A stretch of 64,000 nucleotides of DNA, from IMG/VR virus record IMGVR_UViG_3300025941_000018, positions 11,296 to 75,295 of that record; one strand, given 5' to 3'. A program made the position numbers and the translations under genes. This document shows positions 8,354-32,830 of this stretch, piece after piece. Under the pieces are notes generated by a model, which saw only the letters and a list, made by a program, of their open reading frames with translations, made no database searches and was not told where the DNA came from. The stretch comes from a virus. How positions within the stretch are numbered: position 1 is the stretch's first letter; every line of letters begins with the position of its first letter.

Positions 8354-11300
8354 GGCCGCCGCCTAGTCCGCCGCCCAAGGTTGTCCCGCGTGATGCTGTG
8401 GCCAGCCTGGGAGTGCCTGAAGCCCCGCCAGGCCCACCCACAGCCGGTGCCACAGCCGCACGGCTTGCCGCAGGCGCTCCGCCGCCGCCTATAGATGCCA
8501 CACTAACCCCAACCGACTCCAAAGCGTCTTGATTCGCCCGCTGGAACGCTTTAGCGACGGCGACCTTGTCACTGCCATCCAATCCTTGAAGTTCCTGCTT
8601 GAAATTCACCCCTCGCTGCACCGTGTAATCTTGTAACTCCTGATTCGTCATCGGCCTGAAATCGTTGCCGATGGCGTAGCCCTTATTTGGATTGATGGAC
8701 GGTGGTCGATAGCCGCTTTCAAACACTGCCACGTAGGGTGCCTCTTCCAGTTGCGCTTTCACCGGCAGGGGATACGTGCCTGACAGCATCGTCTGGACGT
8801 AGTTCTGAACGGCATCAGGAGTGCCCACAGGGTCGCCCATGAAGTTGACTGCCTTGTGCCCGCTGGTTGGAAGCGCGACCAGGAAGTCCATGAATGTCGC
8901 CTGTCGAGGATCGAGATGCACGCCGACCGCCCGCATCTGTTCTTGCCAGCCAGGGAGCCCGGGGACCACGGGGCTGATATACGACGCCGCGAGCTTGGTC
9001 GGACTGAAGCTGCCTGCCTCCGTGAACGACTGCGCGGCACCGGTCAGGGTCTTGCCGGACATCAGCAGAGCCAGCGCCGATTCGGCCGCAACTTGGAAGC
9101 GCTCCATGGTAGTAGGAGGCGGGATTTTGCCAGGGGTAAGACCCTTCTTCTCTGCCTCTTGGTTCATGGCGGTCTGCTGCTGTGTGCGCCGCTCAATCAA
9201 ATCCTTTGCTGCCTGCGCGCCGCCGGCATAGGGAGCCAGGAAAGTGCCGACGCCAACCGTCGTGCTCAGTCGGTAAACATGGTTGTCGCCCAGGTTGATC
9301 TCGATGGTTCCCCATTTGTGGCCTGCCTTCTCAGCCAAGTCACGTTCAGCACGATCCATCGGTGGCCGGCCAAAATATTTCATCAGGTTGTTGAACACGG
9401 CCCAAACTGCGATTGCGCCAAAAGCGGTGCCAAGCAAGGCTTGAAAACGGCGCTGCCAAACGTCCTCCTCGGTGGTGAAATAAGGCGACGGTTCAGCCCC
9501 GCGTGGCCGCATGTTAGCCATCGCGTACAGCGGCGTGTTCATAAACGCCCAGTTGATGCCGGTGCCGATGGCATTCGAGAACTGGGTAAAGAACCCCGGC
9601 AGCCCGGCGCCGCGCAACATGCTTTGCGCGTACTTCAGCGGCACGGTAACCAGCGCGCCCGGGCCAGTCTTCACCGGTTCCTGCCATGCGGACAGCCGTT
9701 TGAGCAGGTCGGCGCGCTTCTGGAACTCATCGGCGGGCAAATGGGCCATCCGAATCTCGTCATACATGCGGCTGAGAACGAGCGCCGATGCCCGCTCGAC
9801 CAGTTCAGCCTCAGTCAGCGTCTCGCCAGCGGCTGCCGCTATCCTGCGAGCATCGGCCAGGGCGGCATCTCGCTTCGCCGGCAGTCCCTTGAACACCCTG
9901 TCGCGAATCACTAATCGGTCAGCCAGCAGAAAGCCCTTCTGGATGAGGCTCGAATCGACAAGGTTGGACATTTCAGTCATCTCGACCGCCGTACCCTGCC
10001 AGGCATCCATGGCGCGGATGAAGTGCAAAGACCACTTCACGAGTCCCAGGAAGCGCAGTGCCCCGGCCTGAGCAGTCTTGCCTTGGGCATCCAATTCCTT
10101 AGCCTTGAGTTCCATCCGCTCGAAAGCCTGAACTCCGGACATCAAACGCTCGACGTTTCGGGTCTCGCCGCGATTGAGCAATCCTGCCCTGAACGCCAGC
10201 AGCCCTGGCTTAATGGCATCCACGGTCTCTTTGAACCCTTGGACCATCGTGCGCCCGAGGTCTCCCCATGCCTGCCCGATGGACTCTTCGCCGCGCTCCA
10301 CCCTTGCTGCCACGAATCCCGCAGCCCGACTCGGAACGTGCATCAAGAACTGTGTTGCCATGTGGAGTGGTAGCCGGAAGCCGAACCCGGTCTTGAGCAG
10401 CAGATTGGCAATCTCGAACTCGTTGGTCGCCGCAGCGATGTTCTGCCGTGTAGCCCAGAACTTCGACCATTTGATGGGCTGCGTGAGCCGTGCCCAGCGT
10501 GCCGCTAATTCCCGGTTGGCTGCCCCGATCTTCCCTTCCATGGTCACCATGCGCTCACGGCGGGCCTTCTCGACGTCGCCACCAGCGTCTTTGATTTCTT
10601 CCGGGGTAGGTTCGGCCAGCCGCTGGGCTCGCTCGCTCAACTCCCGCATGATGCGGATCTCCGCTGGGCTGGGTGGCGTGTAGCCGTTGGCCTTCGCAAT
10701 CTCGGCGATGATGGTCGTCGGATCGGCACCACCAGCATTGAACATTCGATGCAGTTTCTCGACCACATTGCGCCTGCGCATCTGTTTGCGCTCCTGTGGC
10801 GTCAGAGCGTCGATAGCCTGCTTTCCAGCCGCTGCCAGCGCTTTGGTCATCGGGAGCTTAAACGCCGCCTGGAACATCGCCTTGACCTTGTCCACCTGCG
10901 CTGGGTCGATGCTCAGATCGCGGACCATGTGGTCGGCAAACCTCTCAGCCAGCTCGTCCTGGCGGTAAAACGGGGTTTCCAGCACTTGCTTGGTCAAACT
11001 GCTGACATTTGGCACCAACCGCTGAACCACGCCCTTAGCCGCCACATTGTCAATCATGGGCGTGTCGATGCCACCGGCGCGGATGATGCCTTCCAGCTTG
11101 CCTTTGGCCTCATCAAGCCGCTTGGCGCGCGCCTCCGGGGTGATCGGCGCCACGTCGAAGGTGCGATCTGCACCCTTCAGGAAGCTTCGGGTAATCCGTT
11201 CTTCCGCTGCCTGCAGCCGTTCGGCCAGGTAGGTCCAGGTCACGGCTTCCAGATACGTGCGGGTTGGCTCATCTAAGGCGTTGAACTTCTCGGCCGTAGC

Positions 11301-14300
11301 GATTTCCTCACTCTTGCGCTCAATCCATTGCTGCTTTTCAGCCCTTGTCGAGGTTGCCAGGCTTTCCAATTCCTTAGCCGACACGTATTTCGAATCGACG
11401 CTGCGAATCAGACGGCGCGTTCGGTCGGTCTGGAAGCGTGGGTCTCGCGACACCCCGGCGTTAATCAGCCCGCGCAGACGCTCGGATGCCGTCTTAGGCA
11501 CGTTCGCCTTCGGGTCGAAGAAATTATCCACGACTCGCTGCTGGGCTTTCTTCAATTGGGCGAGCATCTGCTGCTCGATGGCGTTGTAAACCCGAAGCTT
11601 GGTCTCCGGAGATGCAGCGGACATATCCACCACAGCCTCGATATTATCCATGAAAGCACCCATCACGCGGGCTTTCTCTTCATCCTCGGACTTCGCCAGC
11701 TTCACCAAGTCAATGCGGGTGTCAGCGGGCTTGACCTTGGGGTCCTCGAACTTCGTGCCTTTGAAATGTTCACTAAGCACCTGCCGCACGAGCCGCATGG
11801 TTGTCGGGTTGTAGCCAAGGTCTTCGCCAATCTTCTCCCAGTGCGCGTACTTCGGCAGCTTCATACCTTCGTCGATGAACTGCTGTGGCGGCATCACACG
11901 CTCATTGCCTGGTCCTGCCAGGTCGATTTCCGTCAGCATGTCCTCAAGGGCGGCCTTGCGCTCCGGGTCTTTCTCGCTGGTCGCGTACTTCTTCAGGATG
12001 ACACGGCCCGCATTCCACTGCGCTTCTTCCAACGCCCATTCGAGGGATTGCCCAATCGCATCAGCGGTCTTCGGATCGAGCATCAAATGGAGTTCTTCCA
12101 TCGCCGTCAACTTGGTCTTGCCTGGACGCGGCTTTGGCTCAATGCCGTATTTGGCTTTCAGCCGCTCGAGTACCTTGTCGTAAGCCTCATTCTCTTTGCT
12201 CTTGAGCGCGAGTTGTTCTGGGGTCAATGGTTGCTTGGGTGCCAATGCTCGCTGCAAGCGTCGGTACAACCTGCCGCCTTGGTCCTGAGCACTCAGCCGA
12301 ATCAGTGTATTGATGAATGTCCTCGCGTCGGGATGGCCATTAAGCGCGTCCTCGATCTCTTTGGGCGTGAACAGATCGCGGAAATGGGTCAGCGCCCGCT
12401 CAATCACTTTGCGGATGCCGTCGCCATTGAATGCCTGCGAAAACTCTTTGTGCAGATACACGTCCACGTTGCGGCCAATCACGTCCAGCCCGGGCTTGAG
12501 GCGGGAGAGGGCCGACAGCGCGGCGCCCACGCTGCTAATCTCGCCCTGAGCCACGGCAAATAAATCATCGCGCAGTCCGGTCGGTAGTGTTGCCATCGCT
12601 GAGCCCGGCACGTTGCTGTAGTTTAGGCGCACGGAATTGAGCAGGTGCATCAGCAACCCATTAGCCTTCCCGGGTTCATTCTGCGCTCGAATCTCAGCCT
12701 TCATCCGTTCCAGCAGCTTCTCGAATTGCTCCCGTTGATCCTCGCCACTGGCGTCAAACCGATAGACTTCCTTCTCCATCTTGCCCGTCTCGGGGTCCAT
12801 GACGGCAGTATCGGTGAACGGGATCTTAAGCGAGTCCAGCACGGTCTTGCTGAAATCCTTCATTGTGGCGATCTGCGCAGCGGTCTGTCGGCTGAGCACG
12901 CCGAAGTCCGTGCCCATGACCTTCGTCTCCGTGTATGGGCTTGGCGGCTCTTCTTCGCTCGGGCCGAGAGACGCCATCAATCGCTCGTGCTCAAACTGAT
13001 TGCCGCTCTCCGGTGTGGTATCAAATCGCCCAGCCATCACCGCATCGAGCACATCGTTCTGCCGCGGCCGCATTCGCAGGGCTTTGCGAAGTGCCGACAG
13101 GAATTGCTGCCAAATCGCTTTGACCCTGGCCCAGAAGCCCTCGACGACAGAGCCAGCCTTTTGCTCAAACCTGTCGCTGAACGAGTGCGCGAAATATTCT
13201 TCGTCGTTCGAATGGTGATATAGCAGCTTCTCGTAACGCTTCGGATAGTTGCGGGACAAGAAGTCCTTGGTGTCCACCGTCGGATTGTCGCGCAGGTCAG
13301 TTAGCGCAGCGGTCAGTTCGGCGTTGCCCTCATTCTCTTTCAGTAAGACCTCAATGCTCGCCAACTTGAGCCTGTTTATCTCTGCCCGAATGTCTTCTGG
13401 AAGGACGTTCTGGTAAAGCCAGTGCGCAAATTCATGTGGCAGAGTCTTCGGGTCGGCGGTTCGACCGAACTGAATCAGATTTTGAAGTGTACTTCCAGCG
13501 TATCCGTTCTCCACTGCGTCAGTGATGACAACTCGAACACCTTCGAAATCTTTCGCAACGGGCAAATCCAGCAGCGCATTCGCCAGCCTGACAACTTGCG
13601 GAGATAACCCCGCGTCCTTGGCGTTGATCGCCGTGCGCAACTCTTCGACGGTGCGGGCTTCGACGGGCTGACGCTCGCGCAACGGCGAAGTCAACTCTTC
13701 CGTCGGAGTGCTGGCCATTGCGCCAGGTTCGCGCATCGCAGGCGTGATGGCGATAGCGTGAACCGGAGTCGTTATCGGCACTCCGATTTGCTGCATGGCT
13801 TTTTCAGCATCAGCCCTGCTCGAAAACTGCGAGGACAGTTGCTCTCGCACCCCGTCGGGGGTTCTTCCGTAAACAACCCAAAATCCTTGGAACGAACCCG
13901 GCTCAACTTTGAGGTCGGTCATCCCTTCTCCTTCGCGCTCGCCAACCGAAATGCCCTGCGTTCCAACCTTCACCCCCGCCTTCTTCACCGGAGCCAGATT
14001 GTTGACGACGTTGGGTAGGTCTTGGTCGTAGAGTTTTTTGAGGCCAGCGCCACCGACTCTAAGATCCAGACCGGTGAAGTCCTGTTGCTCTCTGCCGTCT
14101 CTGGCAGCGGCAGCGGCCTTCTCGCCAAGTTCTTTGCCGATGTAATCGGACAGTTTGTCTGCGGAAATTCCAGAGGCAATCTCATACCAGTTGCCCTCGG
14201 TTTCGTGACCCACGCGCCTGACGGAAACGTCCACTTTCTTTCCGTCGCCTGAAATATTCTCGACGCGGATAGCCGACACATGCTTGCTGAGATCATATCG

Positions 14301-17300
14301 TTCCGCTTGTTGAGTCCCCGTCGTCCAACCAACTGCTTCAAACCCATTCTCTGCCGCATGACGTAAAGCCCAACGCATCGCAATCTCGCGCCAGTGCTTT
14401 TGAAACAGGGCGGGCATCTTCTCGAACTCGCCTTTTTGAGGGGGTTGGACCTCCTCAAGAAAAAGCATTCGCTTGCCGTCTGCCGCGGCACGTTCGTTAT
14501 AGCGGAGGCGAACGATGGGATTTGGAATGGCGGCGTACTGCGAGTGGCCGTCGCGCCAGCCGGGCTTTCCCGTGATGGATTGAATTGCATCCTGCTCCGT
14601 CGCTCCGCTGCCTCTATTTAGACCGCTTTGACCCCTGACGATCCATAATCCCCTGCCGTCTGCCGTCTCGACCTTTTCAAGCGTGAATCCTTTCGGAAGG
14701 GCTTGCGGTGTTTTTACTTCCGGCACGGTCAACAGTACTTCGCGATAGCTGCCCTCCTTTGCGCCAGGGAGTGTGTATTGGGAGAAGTGGGTGTCGGTTG
14801 TCACTGGCCCCATCTCGACCTCGGCGCGATCAGCGTCTATGTTCTGTAAAGCTTCGGTTTCATCGTAATGCCCCGGAGCTGATCCGACGTAATTCCCATC
14901 AACGAAACCAACCCAGTCCTCTGGCTTGTGCCAGTCGTGTCCGGGTATCTGCGACTGCTCGTCCGGAGTGAGTGAACCGAATCGACGCAGTTGCGCGGCA
15001 AACTTTTTCTGTCCCAACGTCACATCCTTCACTTGAATCTCATTCGCCTTGAGATAATCCAGCACGTCGGTCTTGGTGTAGGTCTTACCGTCCTCCAAAC
15101 CATCGACGCGCATCAATGCCCATTCGTCTTTGAGCACACCAGGACGATTGCGCAGTTCAGCTTTCCACTGTGCGCCGGTTGCTTTGCCTGTGCGACTGGC
15201 CATCGCCTGCTTGAGAATGTCGCCCAGCGCGGCTTTCTCGCCTTCTGTCGGTGGTTCTTCGGCGGCTGGTGTCGGCGCTTCCGGCTCTGGCTTGGTTGGT
15301 TCAATCTTTGGTTTCAGGTCGGGGTAGTCCGCGAGAACTTCTGCGGGCACGTCCTTACCTTCGCTTAGGGCTTGTTGAACGGCGAGCTTGTGGCTCTGCG
15401 CTTCGCCCGCCATTGTGAGTTCTTCGTTTTTCACAATGCCAGCCCGCATCCCGGCTCGATTCACACGATCAAAAGCTCTGGCGTTCGCGGCCTTTATCCA
15501 GTCGCGGCCTTTCTGCGTTTTGGCTTTTAGGTTCGATCCGCCCTTTACCTTCTTGGCCTCAAGGTCTCCCGATTTAATAAGGGCTTCTGACTCAGATCGC
15601 AGGGTTTCTCGAAGTTCTGATTCAGTCTCAACTTGCGGGCCTGCGTCCGTTCGCGGAAAACGTGCTTGGTAATCTGATTTCGTCATCTGCCATGGCTCTT
15701 TGGACGGTTCGACGTTGGGCGTGACAGGCGCACTCACAACCTCCTTTCCAATGTCCGAAAGGTCGGCTGCTGCTGGTGGCATCGGCTTCTGCGCGGGTGG
15801 AGGCGGCACTTGGCTGACAATCGTTTCGCCAGGATAAAGGCTCGCTGTTGACCATGCTCCATCTTTCACACGGCTAATCATCGGCGGCACACCGGGCACC
15901 TGCTCCCAGTAGCCACCGAATGCGGCTTGGTAGGTCGAACCGTCGGGCCGTTGGATGGTGACTGCGGTGTGGTTTGGTGGCAGTGGCGGGATGCTGGCCG
16001 CGCCTGAAATCTCTGTTATTTGTGCTTTTGGAATTACGTCCGAGTAATTGATTCTCGCAAGCCTTTGTTGAACGATCTTACCGTCATCGAGGAACACATC
16101 CAATTGGGCGGGGTGATTAAACATCGCCCTGCCACCGGCGTTATGTTTTTCTGGGCGCAGTCTCGCTATGTAGTTCTTTCCGCCGGAGGAAAACTTCATT
16201 GCGTGTGTGTATTGACCCTCGTCGCCCACTTCGGTCGAAAGCACGTATGGGTCGGATTCAATTGTCCGCTTAATGTCGGCTCTAAACACCGGATTGTCCG
16301 ACATTGAAGCCAGAGCTTTCTGCCGATTTGACAGAGGCTTTGGTGGTGCGGGAACTACCGTCGGCTGGGTCGGCGCTTGGGTGACTGGCGAGATTTCTGG
16401 CGTGGCTTCGGGCGCGACGACAGGCGGCGTCCCTTGACCACCTTGCCCACTTTCTCTGGCAGGCTGCGGTACGACACTGGGGCTTCCTTCTGCCACTTGT
16501 GCAGCAGGTCCGGGCGGTTGACCGCCGCCCACTTCCACTGGTGCTTGCTCTTGATTGGCATTTGGTCCTTGATTTAAGAGGCGCGTGGCCTCGGGTTGAA
16601 CTGTCGGCACTGCTGACGGTTGGGCTACTGCCGTGGCCTGACCTTCTGGCGTCACTTCGACCGTGCGTTTACGGCCGCCTTTGATGCCCAGCATCTGCGC
16701 AAGTTTCTCAGGCCAGCCTTGCTCGACAATGTTGACGCCTTTTGTGCGGGCCTCTTTGATATTGCCAGGACCGCCGCCAACCTGTCGGCCAAGTTGGTCG
16801 TTGATCATCTGGACAAGATCCTTCTCTGACTGTGTGGCCGATTCATCACCGCGTTGGACTCGCGTGTAAATGTCTCGTAGTTCTTCGGGCGAATAACTCT
16901 CGATCACCTTGCGAGTTGCTAGCGTGTCGGCATTGCGTTCGACCCACGCGCGAGTCTTGCTCGGCACTTTCTTGCTGAATCTGCCGATGCCAAGCAGGGA
17001 GAAACCCAAGTTTGTGCCGATGATCTCAGCCAAGTGCAAAGCCGCGCCCTGCGGGTCGGACTTCATCTGCGCCAGCAGTTCCGGAGTCTGGGTTGCTGTC
17101 ATGTAGCCATCGAGCGCTACCTGTTCGCCGATTGTTTCCAGCACCTTCTGCGCCGTCGCATTGATCGGTGCGGCCCCGCCTTTCGCCAGCGTCTTGCCAA
17201 TCGCCGCGGCGACCGCCGTCTTTCCGACCAGCCCAACGCCTGGCAGCAGGGACGCGATCAGCGCCTCCTTTGGATGGAAATTCCCCTCGTCGTCTATGCC

Positions 17301-17948
17301 GAACAATCCGCCAGCGGCAATTGACTGCGCGATCAACCCCTCGGGAGCCACGGCGAGCAACGCGAAGTTTGGCGCGGCCTTGGCCAAACTGAGGGCTGTG
17401 GCGCCCATCGCCGTTGCAACTGGAAATTCGCCACGGTCTTTTTGCTCCTGGGCTGAGGCTTGTACGGCCTGCTCGACTGGCAGCGGTTCTTCTAACGGTG
17501 CCGCGATATTCGCCTTCGTCAGATTCGGTGCCGTCGCGGTGCTTGGCCGCATGACATTGGCGATGTCGCCGAGTCCACCCATGACCGCTTTACCAGCCAG
17601 CCGCCGCGTCTCCGTGAAACTCAATGGCCGCGCATTCGGGGCTTCCGTCCCGCGTATGTCCGATTTATCCGGTGGCTCTGGTGGCGGCGGGTTCGACTCC
17701 CAACTGCTGCTAACGGGCGGGATGAAGGCTGTCGGGGTTGGGGATGGCCGCGATGAAACCCTTGCTTTGACTGGCGCTGGCGTCTCAACCGGGGTGCCGA
17801 TGTCGCTAAGGTCGAACGGGTCTGGCGCTTTGGCTGTTGGCACCGGCGTCCCAATATCGCTCAAATCCGTGGGCTGCATCTCGCGCCTGGGAGCAGGCAA
17901 AACCTCAGTGCCAATGTCGCTCAGGTCCGTTTCGTCCATTACTGCCAT
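8217..17948 (-). CDS. Giant polyvalent (probably ejected/internal virion) protein, 3243 aa
   Basis: Last gene of virion arm; zincin HEFAH...EEYFA metallopeptidase motif near 13.2-13.4 kb; large-polyvalent-type block (YREVLL..GH..RLR..LFLEEVQ); DLSDIG repeats; Arg-rich tail. Confidence 0.8.
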   Translation of the reverse strand: MAVMDETDLSDIGTEVLPAPRREMQPTDLSDIGTPVPTAKAPDPFDLSDIGTPVETPAPVKARVSSRPSPTPTAFIPPVSSSWESNPPPPEPPDKSDIRGTEAPNARPLSFTETRRLAGKAVMGGLGDIANVMRPSTATAPNLTKANIAAPLEEPLPVEQAVQASAQEQKDRGEFPVATAMGATALSLAKAAPNFALLAVAPEGLIAQSIAAGGLFGIDDEGNFHPKEALIASLLPGVGLVGKTAVAAAIGKTLAKGGAAPINATAQKVLETIGEQVALDGYMTATQTPELLAQMKSDPQGAALHLAEIIGTNLGFSLLGIGRFSKKVPSKTRAWVERNADTLATRKVIESYSPEELRDIYTRVQRGDESATQSEKDLVQMINDQLGRQVGGGPGNIKEARTKGVNIVEQGWPEKLAQMLGIKGGRKRTVEVTPEGQATAVAQPSAVPTVQPEATRLLNQGPNANQEQAPVEVGGGQPPGPAAQVAEGSPSVVPQPARESGQGGQGTPPVVAPEATPEISPVTQAPTQPTVVPAPPKPLSNRQKALASMSDNPVFRADIKRTIESDPYVLSTEVGDEGQYTHAMKFSSGGKNYIARLRPEKHNAGGRAMFNHPAQLDVFLDDGKIVQQRLARINYSDVIPKAQITEISGAASIPPLPPNHTAVTIQRPDGSTYQAAFGGYWEQVPGVPPMISRVKDGAWSTASLYPGETIVSQVPPPPAQKPMPPAAADLSDIGKEVVSAPVTPNVEPSKEPWQMTKSDYQARFPRTDAGPQVETESELRETLRSESEALIKSGDLEAKKVKGGSNLKAKTQKGRDWIKAANARAFDRVNRAGMRAGIVKNEELTMAGEAQSHKLAVQQALSEGKDVPAEVLADYPDLKPKIEPTKPEPEAPTPAAEEPPTEGEKAALGDILKQAMASRTGKATGAQWKAELRNRPGVLKDEWALMRVDGLEDGKTYTKTDVLDYLKANEIQVKDVTLGQKKFAAQLRRFGSLTPDEQSQIPGHDWHKPEDWVGFVDGNYVGSAPGHYDETEALQNIDADRAEVEMGPVTTDTHFSQYTLPGAKEGSYREVLLTVPEVKTPQALPKGFTLEKVETADGRGLWIVRGQSGLNRGSGATEQDAIQSITGKPGWRDGHSQYAAIPNPIVRLRYNERAAADGKRMLFLEEVQPPQKGEFEKMPALFQKHWREIAMRWALRHAAENGFEAVGWTTGTQQAERYDLSKHVSAIRVENISGDGKKVDVSVRRVGHETEGNWYEIASGISADKLSDYIGKELGEKAAAAARDGREQQDFTGLDLRVGGAGLKKLYDQDLPNVVNNLAPVKKAGVKVGTQGISVGEREGEGMTDLKVEPGSFQGFWVVYGRTPDGVREQLSSQFSSRADAEKAMQQIGVPITTPVHAIAITPAMREPGAMASTPTEELTSPLRERQPVEARTVEELRTAINAKDAGLSPQVVRLANALLDLPVAKDFEGVRVVITDAVENGYAGSTLQNLIQFGRTADPKTLPHEFAHWLYQNVLPEDIRAEINRLKLASIEVLLKENEGNAELTAALTDLRDNPTVDTKDFLSRNYPKRYEKLLYHHSNDEEYFAHSFSDRFEQKAGSVVEGFWARVKAIWQQFLSALRKALRMRPRQNDVLDAVMAGRFDTTPESGNQFEHERLMASLGPSEEEPPSPYTETKVMGTDFGVLSRQTAAQIATMKDFSKTVLDSLKIPFTDTAVMDPETGKMEKEVYRFDASGEDQREQFEKLLERMKAEIRAQNEPGKANGLLMHLLNSVRLNYSNVPGSAMATLPTGLRDDLFAVAQGEISSVGAALSALSRLKPGLDVIGRNVDVYLHKEFSQAFNGDGIRKVIERALTHFRDLFTPKEIEDALNGHPDARTFINTLIRLSAQDQGGRLYRRLQRALAPKQPLTPEQLALKSKENEAYDKVLERLKAKYGIEPKPRPGKTKLTAMEELHLMLDPKTADAIGQSLEWALEEAQWNAGRVILKKYATSEKDPERKAALEDMLTEIDLAGPGNERVMPPQQFIDEGMKLPKYAHWEKIGEDLGYNPTTMRLVRQVLSEHFKGTKFEDPKVKPADTRIDLVKLAKSEDEEKARVMGAFMDNIEAVVDMSAASPETKLRVYNAIEQQMLAQLKKAQQRVVDNFFDPKANVPKTASERLRGLINAGVSRDPRFQTDRTRRLIRSVDSKYVSAKELESLATSTRAEKQQWIERKSEEIATAEKFNALDEPTRTYLEAVTWTYLAERLQAAEERITRSFLKGADRTFDVAPITPEARAKRLDEAKGKLEGIIRAGGIDTPMIDNVAAKGVVQRLVPNVSSLTKQVLETPFYRQDELAERFADHMVRDLSIDPAQVDKVKAMFQAAFKLPMTKALAAAGKQAIDALTPQERKQMRRRNVVEKLHRMFNAGGADPTTIIAEIAKANGYTPPSPAEIRIMRELSERAQRLAEPTPEEIKDAGGDVEKARRERMVTMEGKIGAANRELAARWARLTQPIKWSKFWATRQNIAAATNEFEIANLLLKTGFGFRLPLHMATQFLMHVPSRAAGFVAARVERGEESIGQAWGDLGRTMVQGFKETVDAIKPGLLAFRAGLLNRGETRNVERLMSGVQAFERMELKAKELDAQGKTAQAGALRFLGLVKWSLHFIRAMDAWQGTAVEMTEMSNLVDSSLIQKGFLLADRLVIRDRVFKGLPAKRDAALADARRIAAAAGETLTEAELVERASALVLSRMYDEIRMAHLPADEFQKRADLLKRLSAWQEPVKTGPGALVTVPLKYAQSMLRGAGLPGFFTQFSNAIGTGINWAFMNTPLYAMANMRPRGAEPSPYFTTEEDVWQRRFQALLGTAFGAIAVWAVFNNLMKYFGRPPMDRAERDLAEKAGHKWGTIEINLGDNHVYRLSTTVGVGTFLAPYAGGAQAAKDLIERRTQQQTAMNQEAEKKGLTPGKIPPPTTMERFQVAAESALALLMSGKTLTGAAQSFTEAGSFSPTKLAASYISPVVPGLPGWQEQMRAVGVHLDPRQATFMDFLVALPTSGHKAVNFMGDPVGTPDAVQNYVQTMLSGTYPLPVKAQLEEAPYVAVFESGYRPPSINPNKGYAIGNDFRPMTNQELQDYTVQRGVNFKQELQGLDGSDKVAVAKAFQRANQDALESVGVSVASIGGGGAPAASRAAVAPAVGGPGGASGTPRLATASRGTTLGGGLGGGLTRSRGARVGSRRGLSPRMVGRSLTTMRAGRGLSPRRGVRRSSRR
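16355..16561 (-). CDS. Nested small basic protein in alternative frame
   Basis: AAGGA 4 nt before ATG; MPIKSKHQ..W...P...LPEKV resembles the small phage MP(F)KSxAQ proteins. Confidence 0.55.
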   Translation of the reverse strand: MPIKSKHQWKWAAVNRPDLLHKWQKEAPVSYRSLPEKVGKVVKGRRLSSRPKPRQKSRQSPKRRPSRR

Positions 17949-17982
17949 TCCCGCTTATAGCACCCAATGACGAATGTTCCAA
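17946..17982 (-). promoter_or_regulatory. Leaderless-type promoter of giant gene
   Basis: TTGGAA-17-TATAAG then 5 nt to ATG. Confidence 0.55.
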
Positions 17983-17995
17983 AGAAAGAAATTCT

Positions 17996-18538
17996 TTGAC
18001 AGTAGGCGCGAGACGTGGAAAAGTCGAAATGTTCAGGCGACTGACGCCAATACAAATGCAAACCAAAGCTCAATTTAGACTCCACTGGCCATCCGGTCCA
18101 AGGTCGTCTGAACAATGCCCTACCATGCGTTTGTGTGGGGGCCGGACCCATCGGATCTAACCGAGGCGGATTAAACCCCGTCCTCGGTCATTTTCTTTTT
18201 CGCCCGAACCGTTGCCGTTCAGCGGTGAGAAATGGACGCGAGGGTCGGCAATGGATTGCGGTACTCGGGAACTGATTACTACCGCACACGTGGGCGCGAA
18301 TGGGCCAGAGCGTGATTCAGCAGCCTTATACCCAAGGCTGAATAGTCTAGCCCCACCGCTCAAGGTCAAATTTTCGAGCGGAGCCAAAAGCGAAGCGAAG
18401 CGACCGACGGGCTTTCGTAAGAGCAGAGGCAGTAGCGCGTCCCTTAGGGGGCGCTCTGCCTTTTGCTCGCTCTCTCCCTCAAGGCTTTCATCAGTACAAG
18501 GCGGGGATCAGGGAAGTACAGGGGATCTTAACCCGTCC
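17996..18538 (+). ncRNA. Candidate structured non-coding RNA
   Basis: TTGACA-17-AAAAGT; TGTTCAGGCGAC/GTCGTCTGAACA pairing; hairpins ACCGAGG..CCTCGGT, TTCAGC..GCTGAA, CCGCTC..GAGCGG, GCAGAGGCAG..CTGCCTTTTGC; no convincing ORF. Confidence 0.4.
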
Positions 18539-19843
18539 TTACTGAATAATCTTCGCCCCTCTCCGCAAAGCAATCGGCACATTGACGCCCAACACGTCGT
18601 ACACCCGGCCATCAGCCGAGAGCATTCGAACGGTGGCATTTGTGCCAGCGGCTTTCGGAGACTGGACGGACATGATGTTGGGTGCCTGAGCGGTGACCGT
18701 CGTTGTCGGCATTGAGGCTTGCTGAGTGTTGTCGATCATCGGAGCCATCGCGGGATCCTGAACGAGACCGCGTGATGCAACGTCAGGCAATCGGCCAAAG
18801 CGAGATTCGCCGTACATCTTGGCAACCTGGGCGCGAGGAAGTCGAACCAGACCAGCGCTCGTCGGCCCATAGGCCGCAGCCTCATAATCGGCAGGCTGAA
18901 CATTTGCCTGCACGTCAATTGGAGGCTGCATCATCCTAGACACTGTATCAGCGATATTGGTGCCCGATTGCATTCCTCGCCGATCCGCCGGGTGCGTCAT
19001 TTGATACGTGACTCTGTCAGCCTGGGACATGGCCTCATCTCCGCGTGCAGGACGTTCCCACACGCCGCCCGTCGTCGGAGTCCAGCCATTGGGCGCAATC
19101 ACATCGGGAGTTGGGGCACTGCTTGTGCCGGAGTTGCCCGACGGATTTAAGTTTTGGGATTGTGATACGTTTCGATGTGAGATTTGCATTTGCCGTTTAT
19201 CCGGATGCATGGTGGGCGGAGGGTTTAAGGCGCTCATCCAAACCCCAGTTTTCGGGTCCTGATAAACTGTTGCGTGAATCTCTTTGTAAGTCTGATCTTC
19301 CGGGTGAGGAGAGGGTAGAGCGTCTAGTTCAGTTTTGTACTGTTTTTTGCTCTCGACCGCGATGGATAACGGGTCGTTCTCGGCACCGTTTATAAGCTTG
19401 CTAAGCGCGTGACCAATTCCACCATTTTCTTTTATAAATTTATCAATCTCCGCAATATTTGACGTTAGTTCATTTCTTCGGTTCAACACATTGGCGTGCG
19501 CGGTAGAAACGTGGAAATCGCGCTCAAGATTCGCGACTGCATCGGAGTTTATGGCATTTAGACTGCGATCAATTTGCGGGTGCAATCCCGGATATGCACT
19601 GGAAGCGTAGCGCCCGGCTTTTGCGTCCATCAATGCCGAGCGCTCAATCGCCGGAGAATTGCCGGCGCCTTGCATGATTCCCAAAACTTGAAGTGCTCGC
19701 CCGCTAGCTACTCCCATTCCGCGCCCCATCGACTCAAGAGCCTGTTGGTCCATTTGCGCGTATTGAAGTTCACGCTGCTGTCGAAGGGCGGCTTCTCGGT
19801 CTGCTGCTGTTTGCGCAGCGCTGAATGTGTCGCCATAGGCCAT
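18539..19843 (-). CDS. Putative ejection / internal virion protein
   Basis: Position before giant gene; Q/A-rich; C-terminal VRMLSADG..YDV....V..A...GA motif. Confidence 0.6.
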   Translation of the reverse strand: MAYGDTFSAAQTAADREAALRQQRELQYAQMDQQALESMGRGMGVASGRALQVLGIMQGAGNSPAIERSALMDAKAGRYASSAYPGLHPQIDRSLNAINSDAVANLERDFHVSTAHANVLNRRNELTSNIAEIDKFIKENGGIGHALSKLINGAENDPLSIAVESKKQYKTELDALPSPHPEDQTYKEIHATVYQDPKTGVWMSALNPPPTMHPDKRQMQISHRNVSQSQNLNPSGNSGTSSAPTPDVIAPNGWTPTTGGVWERPARGDEAMSQADRVTYQMTHPADRRGMQSGTNIADTVSRMMQPPIDVQANVQPADYEAAAYGPTSAGLVRLPRAQVAKMYGESRFGRLPDVASRGLVQDPAMAPMIDNTQQASMPTTTVTAQAPNIMSVQSPKAAGTNATVRMLSADGRVYDVLGVNVPIALRRGAKIIQ

Positions 19844-19851
19844 GGTTGCTT

Positions 19852-20298
19852 TTAATCCTTCTTCATGATGTTTGCAAGTGTGGATTCGTGTTGCACCGTC
19901 CAGTTGATCTCGCGCAAAAGAGGGCTGAGTTCGCGCACAAGCTCAAACCCGCCGCAAATCGACGCCACCGCCAGCACCATCTCCGAACCAGCGAAGCGCA
20001 GGGTATCTGACCATTGCCGCTTCCAATCACACTTCTCTCCCTCCCACTTAACGCTATCGGCGTAGGCACTGGTGATCGTGGCAACCACCAGTTCTAATTC
20101 TCGGGCGTGTCGATTATAGAAGTTTGCTGAGTATAAAACATTGGCATGAATCAGAAGCTTGATCCAAATCTCAGTCGATTGGACTCGATTGTCGATAAGA
20201 TCATCAATCTCGTGGCAATAGTCACCCCACAATCCCAGCCAGTCGCGTGCTTCTGGATTTCCTGCCGCGGCTCGTTCGTGAAGTTCAGGCAAGGTCAC
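19852..20298 (-). CDS. DDxxD helical protein (class I isoprenoid-synthase-like half domain), paralog 1
   Basis: HEIDDLID; FY.RH; DSVKWE...WKRQW.D.LR; ICGG. Confidence 0.55.
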   Translation of the reverse strand: MTLPELHERAAAGNPEARDWLGLWGDYCHEIDDLIDNRVQSTEIWIKLLIHANVLYSANFYNRHARELELVVATITSAYADSVKWEGEKCDWKRQWSDTLRFAGSEMVLAVASICGGFELVRELSPLLREINWTVQHESTLANIMKKD

Positions 20299-20765
20299 GA
20301 AACGAGTTTCCTTTCCGGGGTTCCTGGCACGCCATGTTTATCAGCGTGGTAAACGTAACACATTGCCATCAACGGAGCGCTAATCCGGCGCATGCCCTCC
20401 CATCCGCCACAAATCATAGCCACTGCCAATATCACCTCGTTTCCAGAGTGCCGCAGCACATCGGCCCATTGCCGCTTCCAGGGTTCTGGCTCCTTTTCCC
20501 AACGAACGCTATCGGTCCACAAGTTCGTTGCGATCAAAACCGGCATTTGTAACTTGGCTACGTGCCGCACGTAAAACGGGTGCGAATAGAATTGGCACGC
20601 CATCATTAACACACGCAAAATATTTTCAGGTTCCCATTTCTGCTCATCACAAACATCATCCACTGCCCGAAGGTAGCACCCCCAGAGCCGCAAGAAATCT
20701 TCCGCGCCAGCCACGCCATTGGCAATTATTCCGTTCAGTTCCTGAATCGCGCTTGGCTCTTTCAT
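20295..20765 (-). CDS. DDxxD helical protein, paralog 2
   Basis: RAVDDVCD; FY.RH; DSVRWE...WKRQW.D.LR; ICGG. Confidence 0.55.
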   Translation of the reverse strand: MKEPSAIQELNGIIANGVAGAEDFLRLWGCYLRAVDDVCDEQKWEPENILRVLMMACQFYSHPFYVRHVAKLQMPVLIATNLWTDSVRWEKEPEPWKRQWADVLRHSGNEVILAVAMICGGWEGMRRISAPLMAMCYVYHADKHGVPGTPERKLVS

Positions 20766-21538
20766 GCCGCGTTGGCCCGATAAAATTGCTCCTGCACCTT
20801 CCATGCGCCTTTGAGTAGTTGTGGATTTTCAAACACCGCGAAATGATTCTCGCGCCAGTGGGTTTCGGGATAATGCGGACACACTAGGTCGGAGATGGTC
20901 CCGAAATTCAGATGGTCGTAAGCATCCAGGATGTCAGTCGTGAAAGGTTCTCCTCCAATCGCGTGGTACAGCAGCGAACATGTGTCGTAGAAATAATTGG
21001 TTTGCGGCATGGCCTTGCCGAATAGTTCCGGTGGGCCAACTGGATGAAACATTGGATAAAATAGGTTCGGCCTGGGATTGAATTGTGTTTCGGGAAACTG
21101 GCTGAAATATTTGGCTGTTTCCTCTTTAATCCGCTGCGGGTTCAGCCATAGTAGCGAAGTGTGCAGGCGGGGTCGCGTAATGCATTTGGTGAAGCTATCT
21201 CGAAACTGAGGAATGTAGCGTCCTGCCATAGGCACGGCGTCAAATTTGCAGTGCTCCACCTTATCCCAGAATACTACATCTGTATCGCATATCCAAAATG
21301 GAGCGTGCTCAATGTGCAGCAGATGCTCAATCCATTCATGGTGGATCGTCACGCCTTTTGGCAGTGGATTAAGTTCCGCCCCCGCTAGAAGTTTCGAGTC
21401 TCCCACGGCGAACTTTTGAATGTTGTCCCATGGAACAATCTCCGCTGATGGAAAACCGATGCGGATTGTGTCAAAAACCATCGTGCTAGCGCGGACTAAC
21501 TCCAGGTTGCGCAGGGTAACTAGAACATGAACATTCAT
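20762..21538 (-). CDS. GT-A glycosyltransferase-like protein
   Basis: WDN, HHEWI, WICDTDVVF (DxD), RLHTSLL, YDT, late H. Confidence 0.6.
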   Translation of the reverse strand: MNVHVLVTLRNLELVRASTMVFDTIRIGFPSAEIVPWDNIQKFAVGDSKLLAGAELNPLPKGVTIHHEWIEHLLHIEHAPFWICDTDVVFWDKVEHCKFDAVPMAGRYIPQFRDSFTKCITRPRLHTSLLWLNPQRIKEETAKYFSQFPETQFNPRPNLFYPMFHPVGPPELFGKAMPQTNYFYDTCSLLYHAIGGEPFTTDILDAYDHLNFGTISDLVCPHYPETHWRENHFAVFENPQLLKGAWKVQEQFYRANAA

Positions 21539-21885
21539 TGCTCAATATCGTCTGTCGCGCTGGCTGGCTTGCCATCGCCCGTCCACCATTCGAAATTAAG
21601 GAACCAGCCGTCCCCGCGGTCGGCATGAGCGCCATGCGCTTGCGCAGCGGTAACCGTATAGAACCGCACCCACGGCAAGGGGCGGTGTTTATTGGAGCCA
21701 TCGCGCGCAACGGATAGGTTTCGGTTTAGGAATACGAAACGGCTGATGATATTGGGGTGCCGGTGCGCTGGGATGGAGTGACCGAATGGACATGTCCAAA
21801 GTTCAATGCGGAGTCGGCCAATTGCCAAAAACAGCCAACCACTGCATTGTGGAGCTATGCTCGGTGCTGGAAGACGGGGAAACAT
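21535..21885 (-). CDS. Cupin-domain protein
   Basis: IPAHRHP and second-motif AHGA; beta-rich. Confidence 0.65.
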   Translation of the reverse strand: MFPRLPAPSIAPQCSGWLFLAIGRLRIELWTCPFGHSIPAHRHPNIISRFVFLNRNLSVARDGSNKHRPLPWVRFYTVTAAQAHGAHADRGDGWFLNFEWWTGDGKPASATDDIEQ

Positions 21886-22658
21886 CAGTAGGATTGCGCT
21901 GCGCTGCTCATAGTGGAAGCCATTTTGGCTTCGTCCTTATCCTGATAGCTCTGCAAATCGTTCAGGAATTTGCCCCAGCGCTGCATCCCTGTGGTTTTCT
22001 GCTGTACCCCGTAAATGTTGTTGGCCTCATCTATGGCGGTGAGGCTTCCGAGATTTCCAGCGTTCGCTCCGAACATTTGTTGGCGTGCGGTGGCAGGGAC
22101 GAGGCTGCGCTGCGCTAGAGTGTCAGCCATTCCCTGACGAGTACCAGCCATGCCGGTTTGCAGGCCCAACCGGCGATAATAATCCTGGCTTGCCTGATCT
22201 GCATCCTGCACCTGGGCTTGTAGTTGATATGGCAGCACCACCCCGGCGAGCAATCGGTCTCGGTAGGTGCCCCCGCTCCCATCTGATCCGACCATTGAGC
22301 GGTTGGCGGTAGCTTGCGCAAATCCCGACCGCCATTTGTTCATGTCCGTTGCAGCGCTCAATCTCCGCGCTCGAAGCCCCGCTTGGTCAGTTTCAAAACC
22401 ACCGTCATATAGTCGATTGAGCGGGGCCATCTCCTCTTCGGTGCGCTTTCCGGCATCGGCGCTGCCTGCCAGGTATTTGGAGATATAATCTCCCAGAGCC
22501 GCCTGTCCTGCCGTGCGGTTCGAGTCAAAATCCCCCAGCAGCGCATTCTCGCGGGAGGCAATGCCAGGGCTCTTGGTATTCCTCAATGTGCGAAACTTCG
22601 GGTCTCCCGAAAAATCGTTAAACGCGCTGCCGCCGATTCCGAAAAGACTTCCAGTCAT
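21885..22658 (-). CDS. Putative DNA ejection / pilot protein
   Basis: Gly/Ala/Gln-rich, follows GNAT and nozzle as in podoviruses. Confidence 0.55.
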   Translation of the reverse strand: MTGSLFGIGGSAFNDFSGDPKFRTLRNTKSPGIASRENALLGDFDSNRTAGQAALGDYISKYLAGSADAGKRTEEEMAPLNRLYDGGFETDQAGLRARRLSAATDMNKWRSGFAQATANRSMVGSDGSGGTYRDRLLAGVVLPYQLQAQVQDADQASQDYYRRLGLQTGMAGTRQGMADTLAQRSLVPATARQQMFGANAGNLGSLTAIDEANNIYGVQQKTTGMQRWGKFLNDLQSYQDKDEAKMASTMSSAAQSY

Positions 22659-22723
22659 AGATTAGCCTTTGACGCTCTGAATCATGTGCTCATTTAGCCC
22701 GATAATGACTGCTTGGCAATAAA

Positions 22724-23140
22724 TTAAACGTCAAAGCACCAACTGCCTTCAAATTCCCGGCCAGCTAATTTACGGTAATACTTGCCGATCCTGTGGTTGG
22801 GCGGATGACTAGCGGCAATAACGCGCACGGCCCCGCCACGCTCGCATTCATCCATCAACGCCTCGAAAATCATTATCTCCCGTGCTCGTTCAAAACACCA
22901 AAATTGAACATACGCAAACTTTACCGACTTGTTAAATGGAAACTGGTGTGCAAAAGCGCCAGCGCAGGAACGCGGACCGACCAGGCAGATACCCCGCAAT
23001 ACTGTATCCTTTACCGTCTCGACCGCCGATGGGTAATCGAACGGAACCTGGTAAGCCGCAATCCCAATTTTGGCGTAGAATCGGCCAAGCATCTGCGCCA
23101 CTCGCTCAACGTCGCCGAGTTGTGCGCGGCGAAACGTCAT
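22724..23140 (-). CDS. GNAT-like acetyltransferase
   Basis: FRRA..GD start, FW, E..GA, YYRKL; usual position after podovirus nozzle. Confidence 0.6.
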
Positions 23141-23400
23141 TCGGCAGGTTCGTAGGTTGCCGCGAAGATGTCAGGCTTGCAAGGATACAGCTCGCCTTTC
23201 ACCCCCCTGATTATCCAGTCGCCGACGTTGGCAGTCATGGTTCCTTCCATCGTTTTAATGGAAAGAGTGTCACCACTAAGTTGAATCACATCGCGTTCTT
23301 CCGCTTCAGCAAACCACATTGGCCCAGGAGGGCAGACTATCTTTTTGTTGAGCCATTGGACGGCTTCGATGACGACGGGTTTCTTGCGATATTTTGCCAT
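23137..23400 (-). CDS. Conserved phage protein (RKKPVVIEA / PGDYG-like)
   Basis: [12 protein letters not shown]...TMEG...[22 protein letters not shown]. Confidence 0.85.
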
Positions 23401-23406
23401 ATAAAA

Positions 23407-23616
23407 TTAAGGCTTACTGACTGCCGCCTGTCCCGGCACTCGCTCGACGAGTTGGCGCTCGAAGTTTTGTCGCCAAACTTCCATTTCGGTGTTGAACTTC
23501 GCGACATCGTCGGAAGTTAAAACCTTTCCGTTGGCAACCGACAGCTTCGGCATAGCCGGCACGCGCAGGGCGTTGGTGGCGAGCGGAGACGAGAATTTGG
23601 CGAGCGGGTTAGCCAT
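23407..23616 (-). CDS. Hypothetical virion-region protein
   Basis: In-operon ORF. Confidence 0.55.
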   Translation of the reverse strand: MANPLAKFSSPLATNALRVPAMPKLSVANGKVLTSDDVAKFNTEMEVWRQNFERQLVERVPGQAAVSKP

Positions 23617-23974
23617 TGCAGACGGGCCTTCCGGTGTTTGGAATTACTTGAACACAGCGGTCGTCCCAGAGTTCGACCATCCCAAAATCCTTGACGTTTG
23701 TAATCTCCAATACCTGACCAACGTGCTTTGCGCACCAGTTCTGAATAGGAGTTATCGCATCCTCAACGCCTCCACCGACCAGCGGCGCTCCATGACCATG
23801 AACGCGGGCTGTGAAGATTTTTACGGTCTTACCTTCCGACAACCACCCCTTTACACGATCGAGCATTGCGGGAATGGGTTCTCCTATGTCCGTTACGCCC
23901 TTCCACCCGCCGTAGAAGGCGAGAGTGCCATCGAGATCCACGCCTATCCACCCTTGATTCATAGTCATCCCCAT
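23609..23974 (-). CDS. HAD-family phosphatase-like protein
   Basis: GVDLDGTLA, IFTAR, TNVK, WDDR. Confidence 0.85.
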   Translation of the reverse strand: MGMTMNQGWIGVDLDGTLAFYGGWKGVTDIGEPIPAMLDRVKGWLSEGKTVKIFTARVHGHGAPLVGGGVEDAITPIQNWCAKHVGQVLEITNVKDFGMVELWDDRCVQVIPNTGRPVCNG

Positions 23975-31872: not shown

Positions 31873-32688
31873 TTACGCGATCTGGGGAGGGTTGGCAAGG
31901 GGGATTGTGGCGCCTTTTGACAGATTATCAAATTCCCAAAGGGGCTGGATATTAGAGAAATGAAAGCAAATTTTCTGCTGCTCTGGGTCCGTCAGATCAA
32001 AAGAACTACATGGTCGCTTATGATCCAGATGGATTTTCCCGCTCATTATTCCCTCCATGCTCATGCCCTCGGTAAATTGCGATTCAAGGTGGGCGATGAG
32101 TTCTGGAATGGTACAGCCAATCAGTTCCATGGTTTTCTTTGCTTTCTTGGCCCGACCTCGGAGCGCGTGCCAGAGACGCGAACGAAGTCGGTTGCCGATA
32201 TTGTACTGCGGATCGGTTTGCCTTTTGTGGCGTTGCCAGAGCTTGATGTATTCACGGTCGCGATCAGCGGTGATGTGCTTCCGTGCTTTTATCCGATCGT
32301 ACTGCTTCTGTTTGTTGCGCATGAAATAGTCCATGCCTCGCTTTTTGCACTCGGCGTTGTAGAAAAGGTCTCCGTAGTACTTGTCGTTGCGCTGCTTTAT
32401 TCTCCTCTCCCTAATTTTCGGCTGCATGTTTTCAGCCCTCATCTTGGCGAGCACGTCTGGGTCGCTCATCCTGCGGTGGATGTACTGAATGTTCCAAAAT
32501 TTCTCCCGATTGAGCAGGAGTATCCAGACGTATAACCGGGAGTTTTTATTACATAGAATTGCGGGCCAAAGCGGCGACACGTCTATAAAATCCACGGCGT
32601 CTGCGCGTTTGTTTTTCCTCCATGCTCGAACGATGGGCGACCAATCAACGGGTTCCGAATTTGGCTTTCTTAATGGGTGCGACATAAG
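31873..32688 (-). CDS. HNH-type endonuclease inserted after capsid gene
   Basis: LRSRL...LIGCT...HLESQF..GM...HLDHKRPC..FDL....CFHFSNIQPLW..DN..KG. Confidence 0.88.
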   Translation of the reverse strand, partial: LMSHPLRKPNSEPVDWSPIVRAWRKNKRADAVDFIDVSPLWPAILCNKNSRLYVWILLLNREKFWNIQYIHRRMSDPDVLAKMRAENMQPKIRERRIKQRNDKYYGDLFYNAECKKRGMDYFMRNKQKQYDRIKARKHITADRDREYIKLWQRHKRQTDPQYNIGNRLRSRLWHALRGRAKKAKKTMELIGCTIPELIAHLESQFTEGMSMEGIMSGKIHLDHKRPCSSFDLTDPEQQKICFHFSNIQPLWEFDNLSKGATIPLANPPQIA

Positions 32689-32830
32689 TTTTTGAAGCGC
32701 CCCGTGATGCGTGTCGCACCTTGCAGCAGGGAGCCGCAAGCACGTAACACGGAGCGAAGTTGTTCGGTGACGAATTCATTCGGGTGCGAACCGAGGGAAA
32801 AATAATGGCCGCCATCTCGAACAAACGCAA
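32689..32830 (-). promoter_or_regulatory. Promoter plus structured leader of HNH gene
   Basis: TTGCGT-17-CATTAT; hairpin CGG-TTCGCAC-CCG with loop complementary to GGTGCGA inside GCTCCGTG..CACGGGGC stem. Confidence 0.55.

Follow-up and report, generated by a model that had tools for sequence, protein, structure and literature searches.

What do a few small enzyme genes do in the middle of a phage operon for virion proteins, and what do their products act on? This question is raised by a seven-gene cassette at positions 19852 to 23140 (and the gene that follows) of a 64,000-nucleotide stretch of viral DNA (the window). The window comprises bases 11296 to 75295 of the 75,295-bp IMG/VR viral contig IMGVR_UViG_3300025941_000018, which is rated 93% complete. 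The cassette lies inside a long minus-strand late virion-gene operon. A preliminary description of the window had read the seven genes as one pathway that modifies ejection proteins. We found a narrower core. A glycosyltransferase-like protein of the GT-A fold and a small all-alpha DDxxD protein are linked in many uncultured phages, and they appear to form one enzyme. The seven genes are listed below from upstream to downstream, with positions in the window.

22724-23140, minus strand: P0001, 138 amino acids (aa), a GNAT-fold acetyltransferase-like protein with a structure match to PF00583 clusters
21885-22658, minus strand: P0002, 257 aa, Gly/Ala/Gln rich, no known family, a putative internal (ejection) protein by position only
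21535-21885, minus strand: P0003, 116 aa, a small cupin with a three-His site (H41, H43, and H84)
20762-21538, minus strand: P0004, 258 aa, a GT-A fold (GT8-like) glycosyltransferase-like protein with invariant D85-x-D87, H126, D185, and H209
20295-20765, minus strand: P0005, 156 aa (P0127 form), a DDxxD all-alpha protein, paralogue 1; the open reading frame (ORF) is open up to 20804
19852-20298, minus strand: P0006, 148 aa, a DDxxD all-alpha protein, paralogue 2, with a GTG start
18539-19843, minus strand: P0007, 434 aa, no known family, with a Ser/Thr/Pro/Asn-rich middle, a putative internal (ejection) protein by position only

Glycosyltransferase-like protein

None of the seven proteins had a Pfam match at an E value of ≤1, so each label was tested in another way. 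For P0004, this cutoff also gave no match to PF01501 (Glyco_transf_8), and there was no NCBIfam match. An AlphaFold2 (AF2) model of P0004 was built on 35 homologues (alignment A1) and had a predicted local distance difference test score (pLDDT) of 92.7. In Foldseek, the model matched GT6, GT8, and GT24 enzymes with an E value of 6e-5. It had 38 PDB matches at an E value of ≤1e-3, nearly all of them glycosyltransferases, plus the nucleotidyltransferase MurU. The top 50 rows of an exhaustive VIA search were all GT-A or nucleotidyltransferase folds. The matches included WbbM (Z score, 10.3), a GT8 protein (10.0), LgtC (9.9), GlyE (9.9), and UGGT (9.8). Bacterial glycosylating toxins or effectors were also matched (LtpM, 9.1; YeGT, 8.4). 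Many of the best VIA matches are protein glycosyltransferases, namely, GlyE, UGGT, glycogenin, Skp1 GalT, and LtpM. The DxD motif (D85-T-D87), H126, D185, and H209 are invariant in the 35 homologues. The GT-A fold in the model and the structure searches, together with the invariant DxD, bears out the GT-A label given earlier. From the predicted fold and the DxD, we infer that P0004 transfers a sugar.

P0004 was compared with GT8-type retaining GT-A enzymes (LgtC, 1g9r; the WbbM C-domain, 6u4b; GlyE, 5gvv; glycogenin, 3u2t; and the UGGT catalytic domain, 6fsn). Like these enzymes, it has the GT-A fold over ~175 to 195 residues at Z scores of 9 to 10. Its DxD follows the fourth strand, and it has a conserved distal His. 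Unlike these enzymes, it is a compact protein of 258 aa, it shares 8 to 12% identity with them, and viral and metagenomic contigs were the only places where its family turned up. No glycosyltransferase was retrieved from the PDB sequences with the A1 profile. A near-best structural match to the P0004 model was M4QDL4 from BFVD, an uncharacterized 258-aa protein of the T4-like Prochlorococcus phage MED4-213 (TM score, 0.74; E value, 3e-13; 15% identity). The P0004 family contains at least 263 homologues (clusters at 90% identity).

DDxxD proteins

P0005 and P0006 both contain the DDxxD motif by which the preliminary description had named them, and they are paralogues with 43% identity. Both match phrog_21390 (E values of 2e-11 and 2e-9, respectively). 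An exhaustive profile search retrieved 1136 cluster representatives of this family at 50% identity, mostly of 145 to 160 aa. The DDxxD motif is present in 151 of 160 family members, and the remainder are DNxxD or fragments. A second conserved motif, DSVxWE, is not Asp rich. The model of P0005 is all helical, with a pLDDT of 91.7. In an exhaustive VIA search with this model, 13 of the 14 best rows were trans-isoprenyl diphosphate synthases (Z scores of 8.1 to 9.0, with 141 to 155 residues aligned). Nearly every row that aligned the whole model was an enzyme of this type.

Other searches gave less. The DDxxD profile matched CrtM weakly at the DDxxD motif, with an E value of 0.64 that is not significant by itself. 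The Atlas neighbors DUF2600, polyprenyl_synt, and HEPPP_synt_1 were at chance level. PF00348 (polyprenyl_synt) had no match in the whole phage genome at an E value of ≤10, and all 14 control genomes were matched. Pfam scans of unusual architectures in the DDxxD family retrieved nothing. We regard it as likely but unproven that the DDxxD proteins are isoprenoid-synthase-like, at half size.

The nearest fold comparison is with the trans-isoprenyl diphosphate synthases (FPPS/GGPPS/HexPPS: 4f62, 3ipi, and 2h8o) and the two-subunit heptaprenyl diphosphate synthase HepS/HepT (5h9d and 9kp1). Like these enzymes, the DDxxD protein is modeled as an all-helical bundle, in which the C-terminal end of a long helix carries the DDxxD. 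Unlike these enzymes, which have ~300 aa and both a first and a second Asp-rich motif (FARM and SARM), it has ~150 aa and one Asp-rich motif per chain. Two such motifs per unit occur in this family only as a tandem pair or in DD-DD fusions. The DDxxD protein also differs from these synthases in being fused or adjacent to a GT-A domain, and we know of no prenyltransferase in such an arrangement. The peptide prenyltransferase ComQ is a further candidate for comparison with the DDxxD proteins. A complex prediction for P0005 and P0006 scored 0.18 against a mark of 0.32, a result that counts neither for nor against a heterodimer.

Linkage of the GT-A and DDxxD domains

Many GT-A homologues have 411 to 434 aa because a DDxxD domain is fused to them at the C terminus. 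P0050 is one of these fusions (GT-A and then DD). It has 47% identity to P0004 over residues 4 to 249 and 34 to 36% identity to P0005 and P0006 over residues 272 to 416. P0137 is fused in the same order. P0195, retrieved among the representatives of the DDxxD family, is a reverse fusion (DD and then GT-A). P0171, P0182, and P0197, also from these representatives, are DD-DD tandem fusions, and they parallel the tandem paralogues P0005 and P0006. These tandem fusions and paralogues suggest that the DD domains work in pairs.

A triple fusion of GT-A, an AttH/CrtC-like lipocalin, and DD was found in two loci, L055 (7674-9905) and L056 (7989-9923), and in P0290. The lipocalin insert has ~240 aa. 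It matched AttH (2ich) with a phmmer E value of 2.3e-4 and Pfam Lipocalin_9 over a short stretch with an E value of 2e-5. If carotenoid hydratases belong to the AttH/CrtC-type lipocalin family, the insert would add a second hint, independent of the first, that the ligand is hydrophobic or an isoprenoid.

Linkage was counted in 56 IMG/VR loci with a GT-A homologue. A DDxxD gene is adjacent or fused in 24 of these loci, in the arrangements GT>DD, DD>GT, and fused. A cupin gene is adjacent in ~19 of the 56, on either side. A maximum-likelihood tree of the GT-A domain has two deep halves, each of which contains links to DD and to the cupin, and it implies at least two origins of the fusion. The neighborhood census from the DDxxD side covered 3 loci (alignment A6). 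A functional link between GT-A and DDxxD is thus upheld by fusions in both orders and by adjacency in three gene orders across a deep tree. Taken together, the fusions, the linkage, and the tree argue strongly, by the Rosetta-stone principle, for a single enzyme made up of the GT-A and DDxxD proteins.

Cupin, GNAT, and flanking proteins

The other two enzyme labels held as well. For P0001, the ESM Atlas model has TM scores of 0.85 to 0.90 to viral clusters in which 93 to 100% of members are PF00583, which fits a GNAT. In P0003, H41, H43, and H84 (HxH...H) are invariant in 15 homologues, and the profile of these homologues matches solved cupins. The best of these matches were BacB (3h7j; E value, 1.2e-5) and quercetinase (3e-5), in a cupin range of 1.2e-5 to 1e-4. 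Cupin_2 was matched weakly by 7 of the 15 relatives. A search of the cassette proteins against NCBIfam retrieved nothing meaningful.

The flanking proteins P0002 and P0007 had been called ejection-like. No match to either was found in Pfam, PHROGs, NCBIfam, or PDB, and the label rests on their position upstream of a 3243-aa protein. That protein itself has no Pfam or PHROG match. L003 and L061, the two closest relatives, are the only loci with detectable homologues of P0001 and P0002, and they conserve only the ends of P0007. By hhalign, P0002 and P0007 showed no relation to their positional counterparts in other loci, and these flanking proteins have diverged beyond recognition.

Gene order and junctions

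The ORF coordinates give the minus-strand order GNAT, P0002, cupin, GT-A, DDxxD, DDxxD, and P0007, as the preliminary description had it. Its claim of translational coupling from the cupin to the second DDxxD gene also stands. The junctions are ATGA (P0003/P0004), ATGA (P0004/P0005), and GTGA (P0005/P0006). The overlap between P0004 and P0005 requires that P0005 start at M14. This start, at 20765, is the probable one, and it is the same as in the database gene call P0127. The P0002/P0003 junction is TGATG. A gap of 8 nucleotides (nt) precedes P0007, and a gap of 65 nt follows P0001.

The enzyme genes have no Shine-Dalgarno (SD) sequence. An SD-like AAAGG precedes the ATG of P0002, and AAGGA precedes the ATG of P0007. 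Coupled enzyme genes without SD sites beside SD-bearing P0002 and P0007 would fit low-level catalytic expression next to abundant structural proteins. A scan of the region found promoter-like and terminator-like sites at chance level only, so the region reads as one transcription unit.

Neighborhood in related phages

The two closest genomes keep the outer frame of the cassette (GNAT-P0002 ... P0007-giant protein) and differ inside it. L003 contains GT-A, DD, and DD but no cupin. L061 contains a cupin and one DD but no GT-A. These differences, and the restriction of GNAT and P0002 homologues to these two relatives, do not agree with seven genes that make up one conserved pathway. Of the co-occurrence that such a pathway would entail, the GT-A/DDxxD link is found in relatives, and the full set is not fixed. 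The gene contents suggest that a more fitting description of the region is an island of tailoring enzymes that varies around a linked GT-A/DD core.

Other partners were found in more distant loci. L015 and L016 contain GT-A, cupin, and GNAT genes. L023 and L035 contain a second, Anp1-like GT-A. P0289 is a GT-A plus Methyltransf_24. Other neighbors of GT-A genes (f3, f5, f26, f27, f28, f62, and f74) were unrelated to the GT-A, DD, and cupin profiles by hhalign.

In a P22-like lineage (L044-L058), the GT-A gene is followed by a cupin-SET methyltransferase fusion and then by a P22 gp7-like protein. The SET match has 22.6 bits, just over the cutoff. The P22_gp7 match of the gene beside the module covers nearly the whole profile (E values of 2e-4 twice and 2e-3) and is below the Pfam cutoff. 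It was seen only in this distant lineage (L044-L047 genes) and not for P0002 or P0007. In L053, a single ORF runs from the GT-A gene into the cupin-SET gene. A candidate second GT-A paralogue in L044-L058 was rejected, and it is the cupin-SET fusion. The window resembles this P22-like module in its GT-A family (27 to 30% identity of L044-L058 to P0004) and in its slot just upstream of ejection genes. It differs from the module in having a stand-alone three-His cupin and DDxxD in place of a cupin-SET fusion partner.

The cupin-SET fusion (L045:6116-6991 and homologues) lies directly upstream of the P22 gp7-like ejection gene. A homologue is present in the cultured Rhodoferax phage P26218 (gene 30, KP792623.1 P26218_30; L059:4950-5825), in which GT-A was not detectable. 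Its N-terminal part also matches proteins annotated "tail fiber" or "RmlC-like jelly roll" in phages of Vibrio, Ralstonia (RSK1), and Thalassomonas (BA3).

In the maps of the 56 loci, the GT-A gene has a recurrent slot. On its upstream side are portal-proximal structural genes, and on its downstream side are the genes for a 300- to 500-aa protein and a very large protein. The module adjoins ejection-type genes in several distinct podovirus lineages, in line with the setting proposed earlier for the cassette.

Proposed function and alternatives

Our favored explanation, which is tentative, is that the region is a variable tailoring-enzyme island in the late virion operon, with a GT-A/DDxxD core enzyme that decorates proteins of this operon. 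The core would be a two-part enzyme. One part would be a GT8-like GT-A transferase for a sugar (or sugar phosphate) with a DxD metal site. The other would be a DDxxD subunit, present in one or two copies of ~150 aa, all helical and shaped like half of a trans-isoprenyl diphosphate synthase. The DDxxD subunits, probably paired, would bind a co-substrate by its Mg-diphosphate end, and this co-substrate would most likely be a prenyl diphosphate or a polyprenyl-diphosphate-linked group. The cupin and the GNAT would provide optional tailoring steps. The product would be a posttranslational decoration (glycosyl, possibly lipid linked, plus acetyl) of proteins from the same operon, and the most plausible substrates would be the internal or ejection proteins encoded on either side.

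Two observations hint at a ligand of lipid or isoprenoid type: nearly all whole-model structural matches of the DD protein are trans-prenyltransferases, and the lipocalin insert matches AttH. A protein target is hinted at by the partners (cupin-SET, GNAT, and Methyltransf_24), by the position beside ejection-type genes, and by the matches to protein glycosyltransferases. In our ranking of possible targets, proteins of the same operon would come first, given that SET, GNAT, and protein-GT-like partners occur, that the module lies beside ejection genes, and that mycobacteriophages offer a precedent. Host polyprenyl-diphosphate-linked envelope intermediates would come second because WbbM is the best match, the DD protein is prenyl-synthase-like, and a lipocalin insert occurs. 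Ejected cargo would come third. A bolder version of the favored explanation seems improbable. It holds that podoviruses of several lineages (glyco-)lipidate their own ejection proteins via GT-A and a split, half-size prenyltransferase-like pair. A prenyl- or polyprenyl-phosphate-linked sugar on the internal proteins would then prime their insertion into the host envelope and the formation of a DNA channel.

Several points weigh against decoration of operon proteins by such an enzyme. The fold match of the DDxxD protein, at Z scores of 8 to 9, is under the level of 13 that is safe for helical proteins. Foldseek with the P0005 model gave no match at an E value of ≤0.001, and the cassette proteins gave no PF00348 (polyprenyl_synt) signal at an E value of ≤1. 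The virion (ejection) status of P0002 and P0007 is putative, and a protein substrate of the cassette is something that we infer. P0002 and P0007 are kept in all three of the closest genomes although the set of enzymes changes, which means that none of the modifications can be essential by itself. Lipid-linked glycans, too, are substrates of GT8-like enzymes, among them the top match WbbM. The structural twin of the GT-A protein, M4QDL4, comes from a T4-like cyanophage, outside any podovirus ejection module.

The match to WbbM, which works on an undecaprenyl-diphosphate-linked galactan, leads to a second explanation, to which we give some but lesser credence. The enzyme may act on host lipid-linked envelope precursors and not on phage proteins. 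The DDxxD protein, in some phages with the lipocalin, would grip an undecaprenyl-diphosphate-linked intermediate, and the GT-A protein would add a sugar. Synthesis of O-antigen, capsule, or cell wall would be altered or blocked late in infection, which could mask receptors, exclude other phages, or aid lysis. The prenyl-diphosphate-synthase-like DD fold and the AttH/CrtC-like lipocalin between the domains of the three triple fusions fit this explanation, as do the cupin, GNAT, and Methyltransf_24 partners, since enzymes that tailor sugars are typically of these kinds. It leaves unexplained the constant position beside ejection genes and the SET-domain partner. The sequences of the cassette proteins show no obvious membrane segment or signal peptide, and no genes for sugar-nucleotide synthesis were seen next to the module. 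In a further explanation, which is unlikely, the cassette enzymes would travel in the virion as cargo together with the internal proteins, enter the cell before the DNA, and modify some host target as infection begins. T4 Alt and the N4 vRNAP reach the cell in this manner. The cassette lies within a putative internal-protein block that ends in the 3243-aa protein, and the fold of P0004 resembles those of the toxins and effectors LtpM and YeGT. Against a role as cargo, the lack of SD sites suggests that the enzyme genes are weakly expressed. A search for longer homologues found no fusion of GT-A to a large internal protein, which is weak evidence, as there were 2 matches only.

About equally doubtful is the absence of any common pathway, in which a slot between fast-evolving internal-protein genes tolerates insertions and only GT-A and DDxxD cooperate. 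The contents of the slot do differ between the window (cupin, GT-A, DD, and DD), L003 (GT-A, DD, and DD), and L061 (cupin and DD), and the partner sets vary by lineage. Chance insertion does not sit well with a cupin next to GT-A in about a third of the mapped loci, in each half of the tree and with either gene first, or with ATGA-type overlaps at the junctions. The partners also all belong to group-transfer or tailoring classes. Hypermodification of the phage DNA, e.g., by glycosylation of a modified base, is highly improbable. One preprint reports phage GT-A enzymes that glycosylate DNA bases in other systems (bioRxiv 10.1101/2023.12.21.572611). The module of the window is in a late structural operon and not among replication genes. 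No hydroxymethylase, TET/JBP, kinase, or DpdA was noticed beside it in the mapped loci, although no dedicated search was made.

Distribution and known systems

A tblastn search of 50,697 phage records retrieved nothing for P0004, P0005, the 290-aa GT-A of the P22-like lineage, the terminase, or the 838- and 758-aa proteins of the phage. By this sequence comparison, the phage is from an uncultured clade with no cultured relative in that collection. The A1 (GT-A) profile found no relative in a scan of GTDB species genomes, and nothing was retrieved when viral contigs were scanned with the single sequences of P0004 and P0005.

The folds are known, and both families are outside Pfam, the PHROG function annotation, and NCBIfam. 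What is new is the fusion of GT-A and DDxxD in many uncultured phages, in both domain orders, and the DD-DD tandem fusions. In the literature, no paper was found on a GT-A joined to a half-size isoprenoid-synthase-like domain. Nothing relevant was found there on a phage prenyltransferase- or terpene-synthase-like enzyme or on a SET domain with ejection proteins.

The closest precedent for the favored explanation is in mycobacteriophages. The phages Che8, Corndog, and Myrna encode glycosylation of their own virions (Freeman et al. 2023, PMC10527164, as cited in PMC11256854). Phage-encoded glycosyltransferases for virion proteins, shown there, are what we propose here. Those systems belong to actinobacterial phages, namely, siphoviruses and a myovirus, and their substrates are capsid and tail-tube proteins, whereas internal proteins are the putative substrates here. 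In the source text consulted, no DDxxD or cupin partner is reported for the mycobacteriophage glycosylation operons, and the window has both.

Other genes of the operon

The operon also contains the following features.

8217-17948, minus strand: a giant protein of 3243 aa that closes the module; it is the positional counterpart of 1400- to 2200-aa proteins downstream of GT-A in relatives
23137-23974, minus strand: three small overlapping genes upstream of the GNAT gene, for a 121-aa HAD-like (DLDGT) protein, a 69-aa protein, and an 87-aa phrog_419 member

The giant protein is the end of the operon and has no family match. Between it and P0007, ~540 nt (17996-18538) contain no long ORF, and the sole ORF there has 70 aa (17939-18151). 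The upstream part of the operon contains tail- and virion-type genes, including those for a 758-aa phrog_3287 "virion structural protein" and a 246-aa tail-fiber-like protein. A 288-aa protein encoded among the structural genes (31873-32739, minus strand) has a C-terminal part that is endonuclease VII-like (phrog_1035; E value, 1.5e-8).

The 121-aa DLDGT protein (23609-23974, minus strand) is HAD-phosphatase-like, and its PHROG matches are annotated as phosphoheptose isomerase and polynucleotide kinase (E value, 1e-6). Its gene overlaps the end of the 758-aa structural gene, and the enzyme island may therefore reach upstream of the GNAT gene. The 87-aa protein (23137-23400, minus strand) matches phrog_419 with an E value of 1.5e-33. 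The DNA of its gene has 74 to 80% identity over ~100 nt to genes of Gordonia, Arthrobacter, Burkholderia, and Bacillus (SPO1-like) phages. This nucleotide conservation is unusually high for such distant phages.

Significance

To our knowledge, it is still poorly understood how the internal proteins of short-tailed phages exit the capsid and build a channel through the envelope. The enzyme module described here is conserved next to internal-protein genes in hundreds of uncultured phages. It defines two sizeable families without a Pfam match. At 90% identity, the GT-A family comprises at least 263 clusters, and at 50% identity, the DDxxD family has 1136 cluster representatives. The DDxxD proteins may be a minimal, half-size form of the class I isoprenoid-synthase fold that works as a pair. 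The cassette genes are small, soluble looking, and easy to express, which makes the question of their function directly testable. The pairing of a sugar transferase with a mini isoprenoid-synthase-like protein would point to an unrecognized modification of virion proteins or to a new way of tampering with host lipid-linked envelope precursors.

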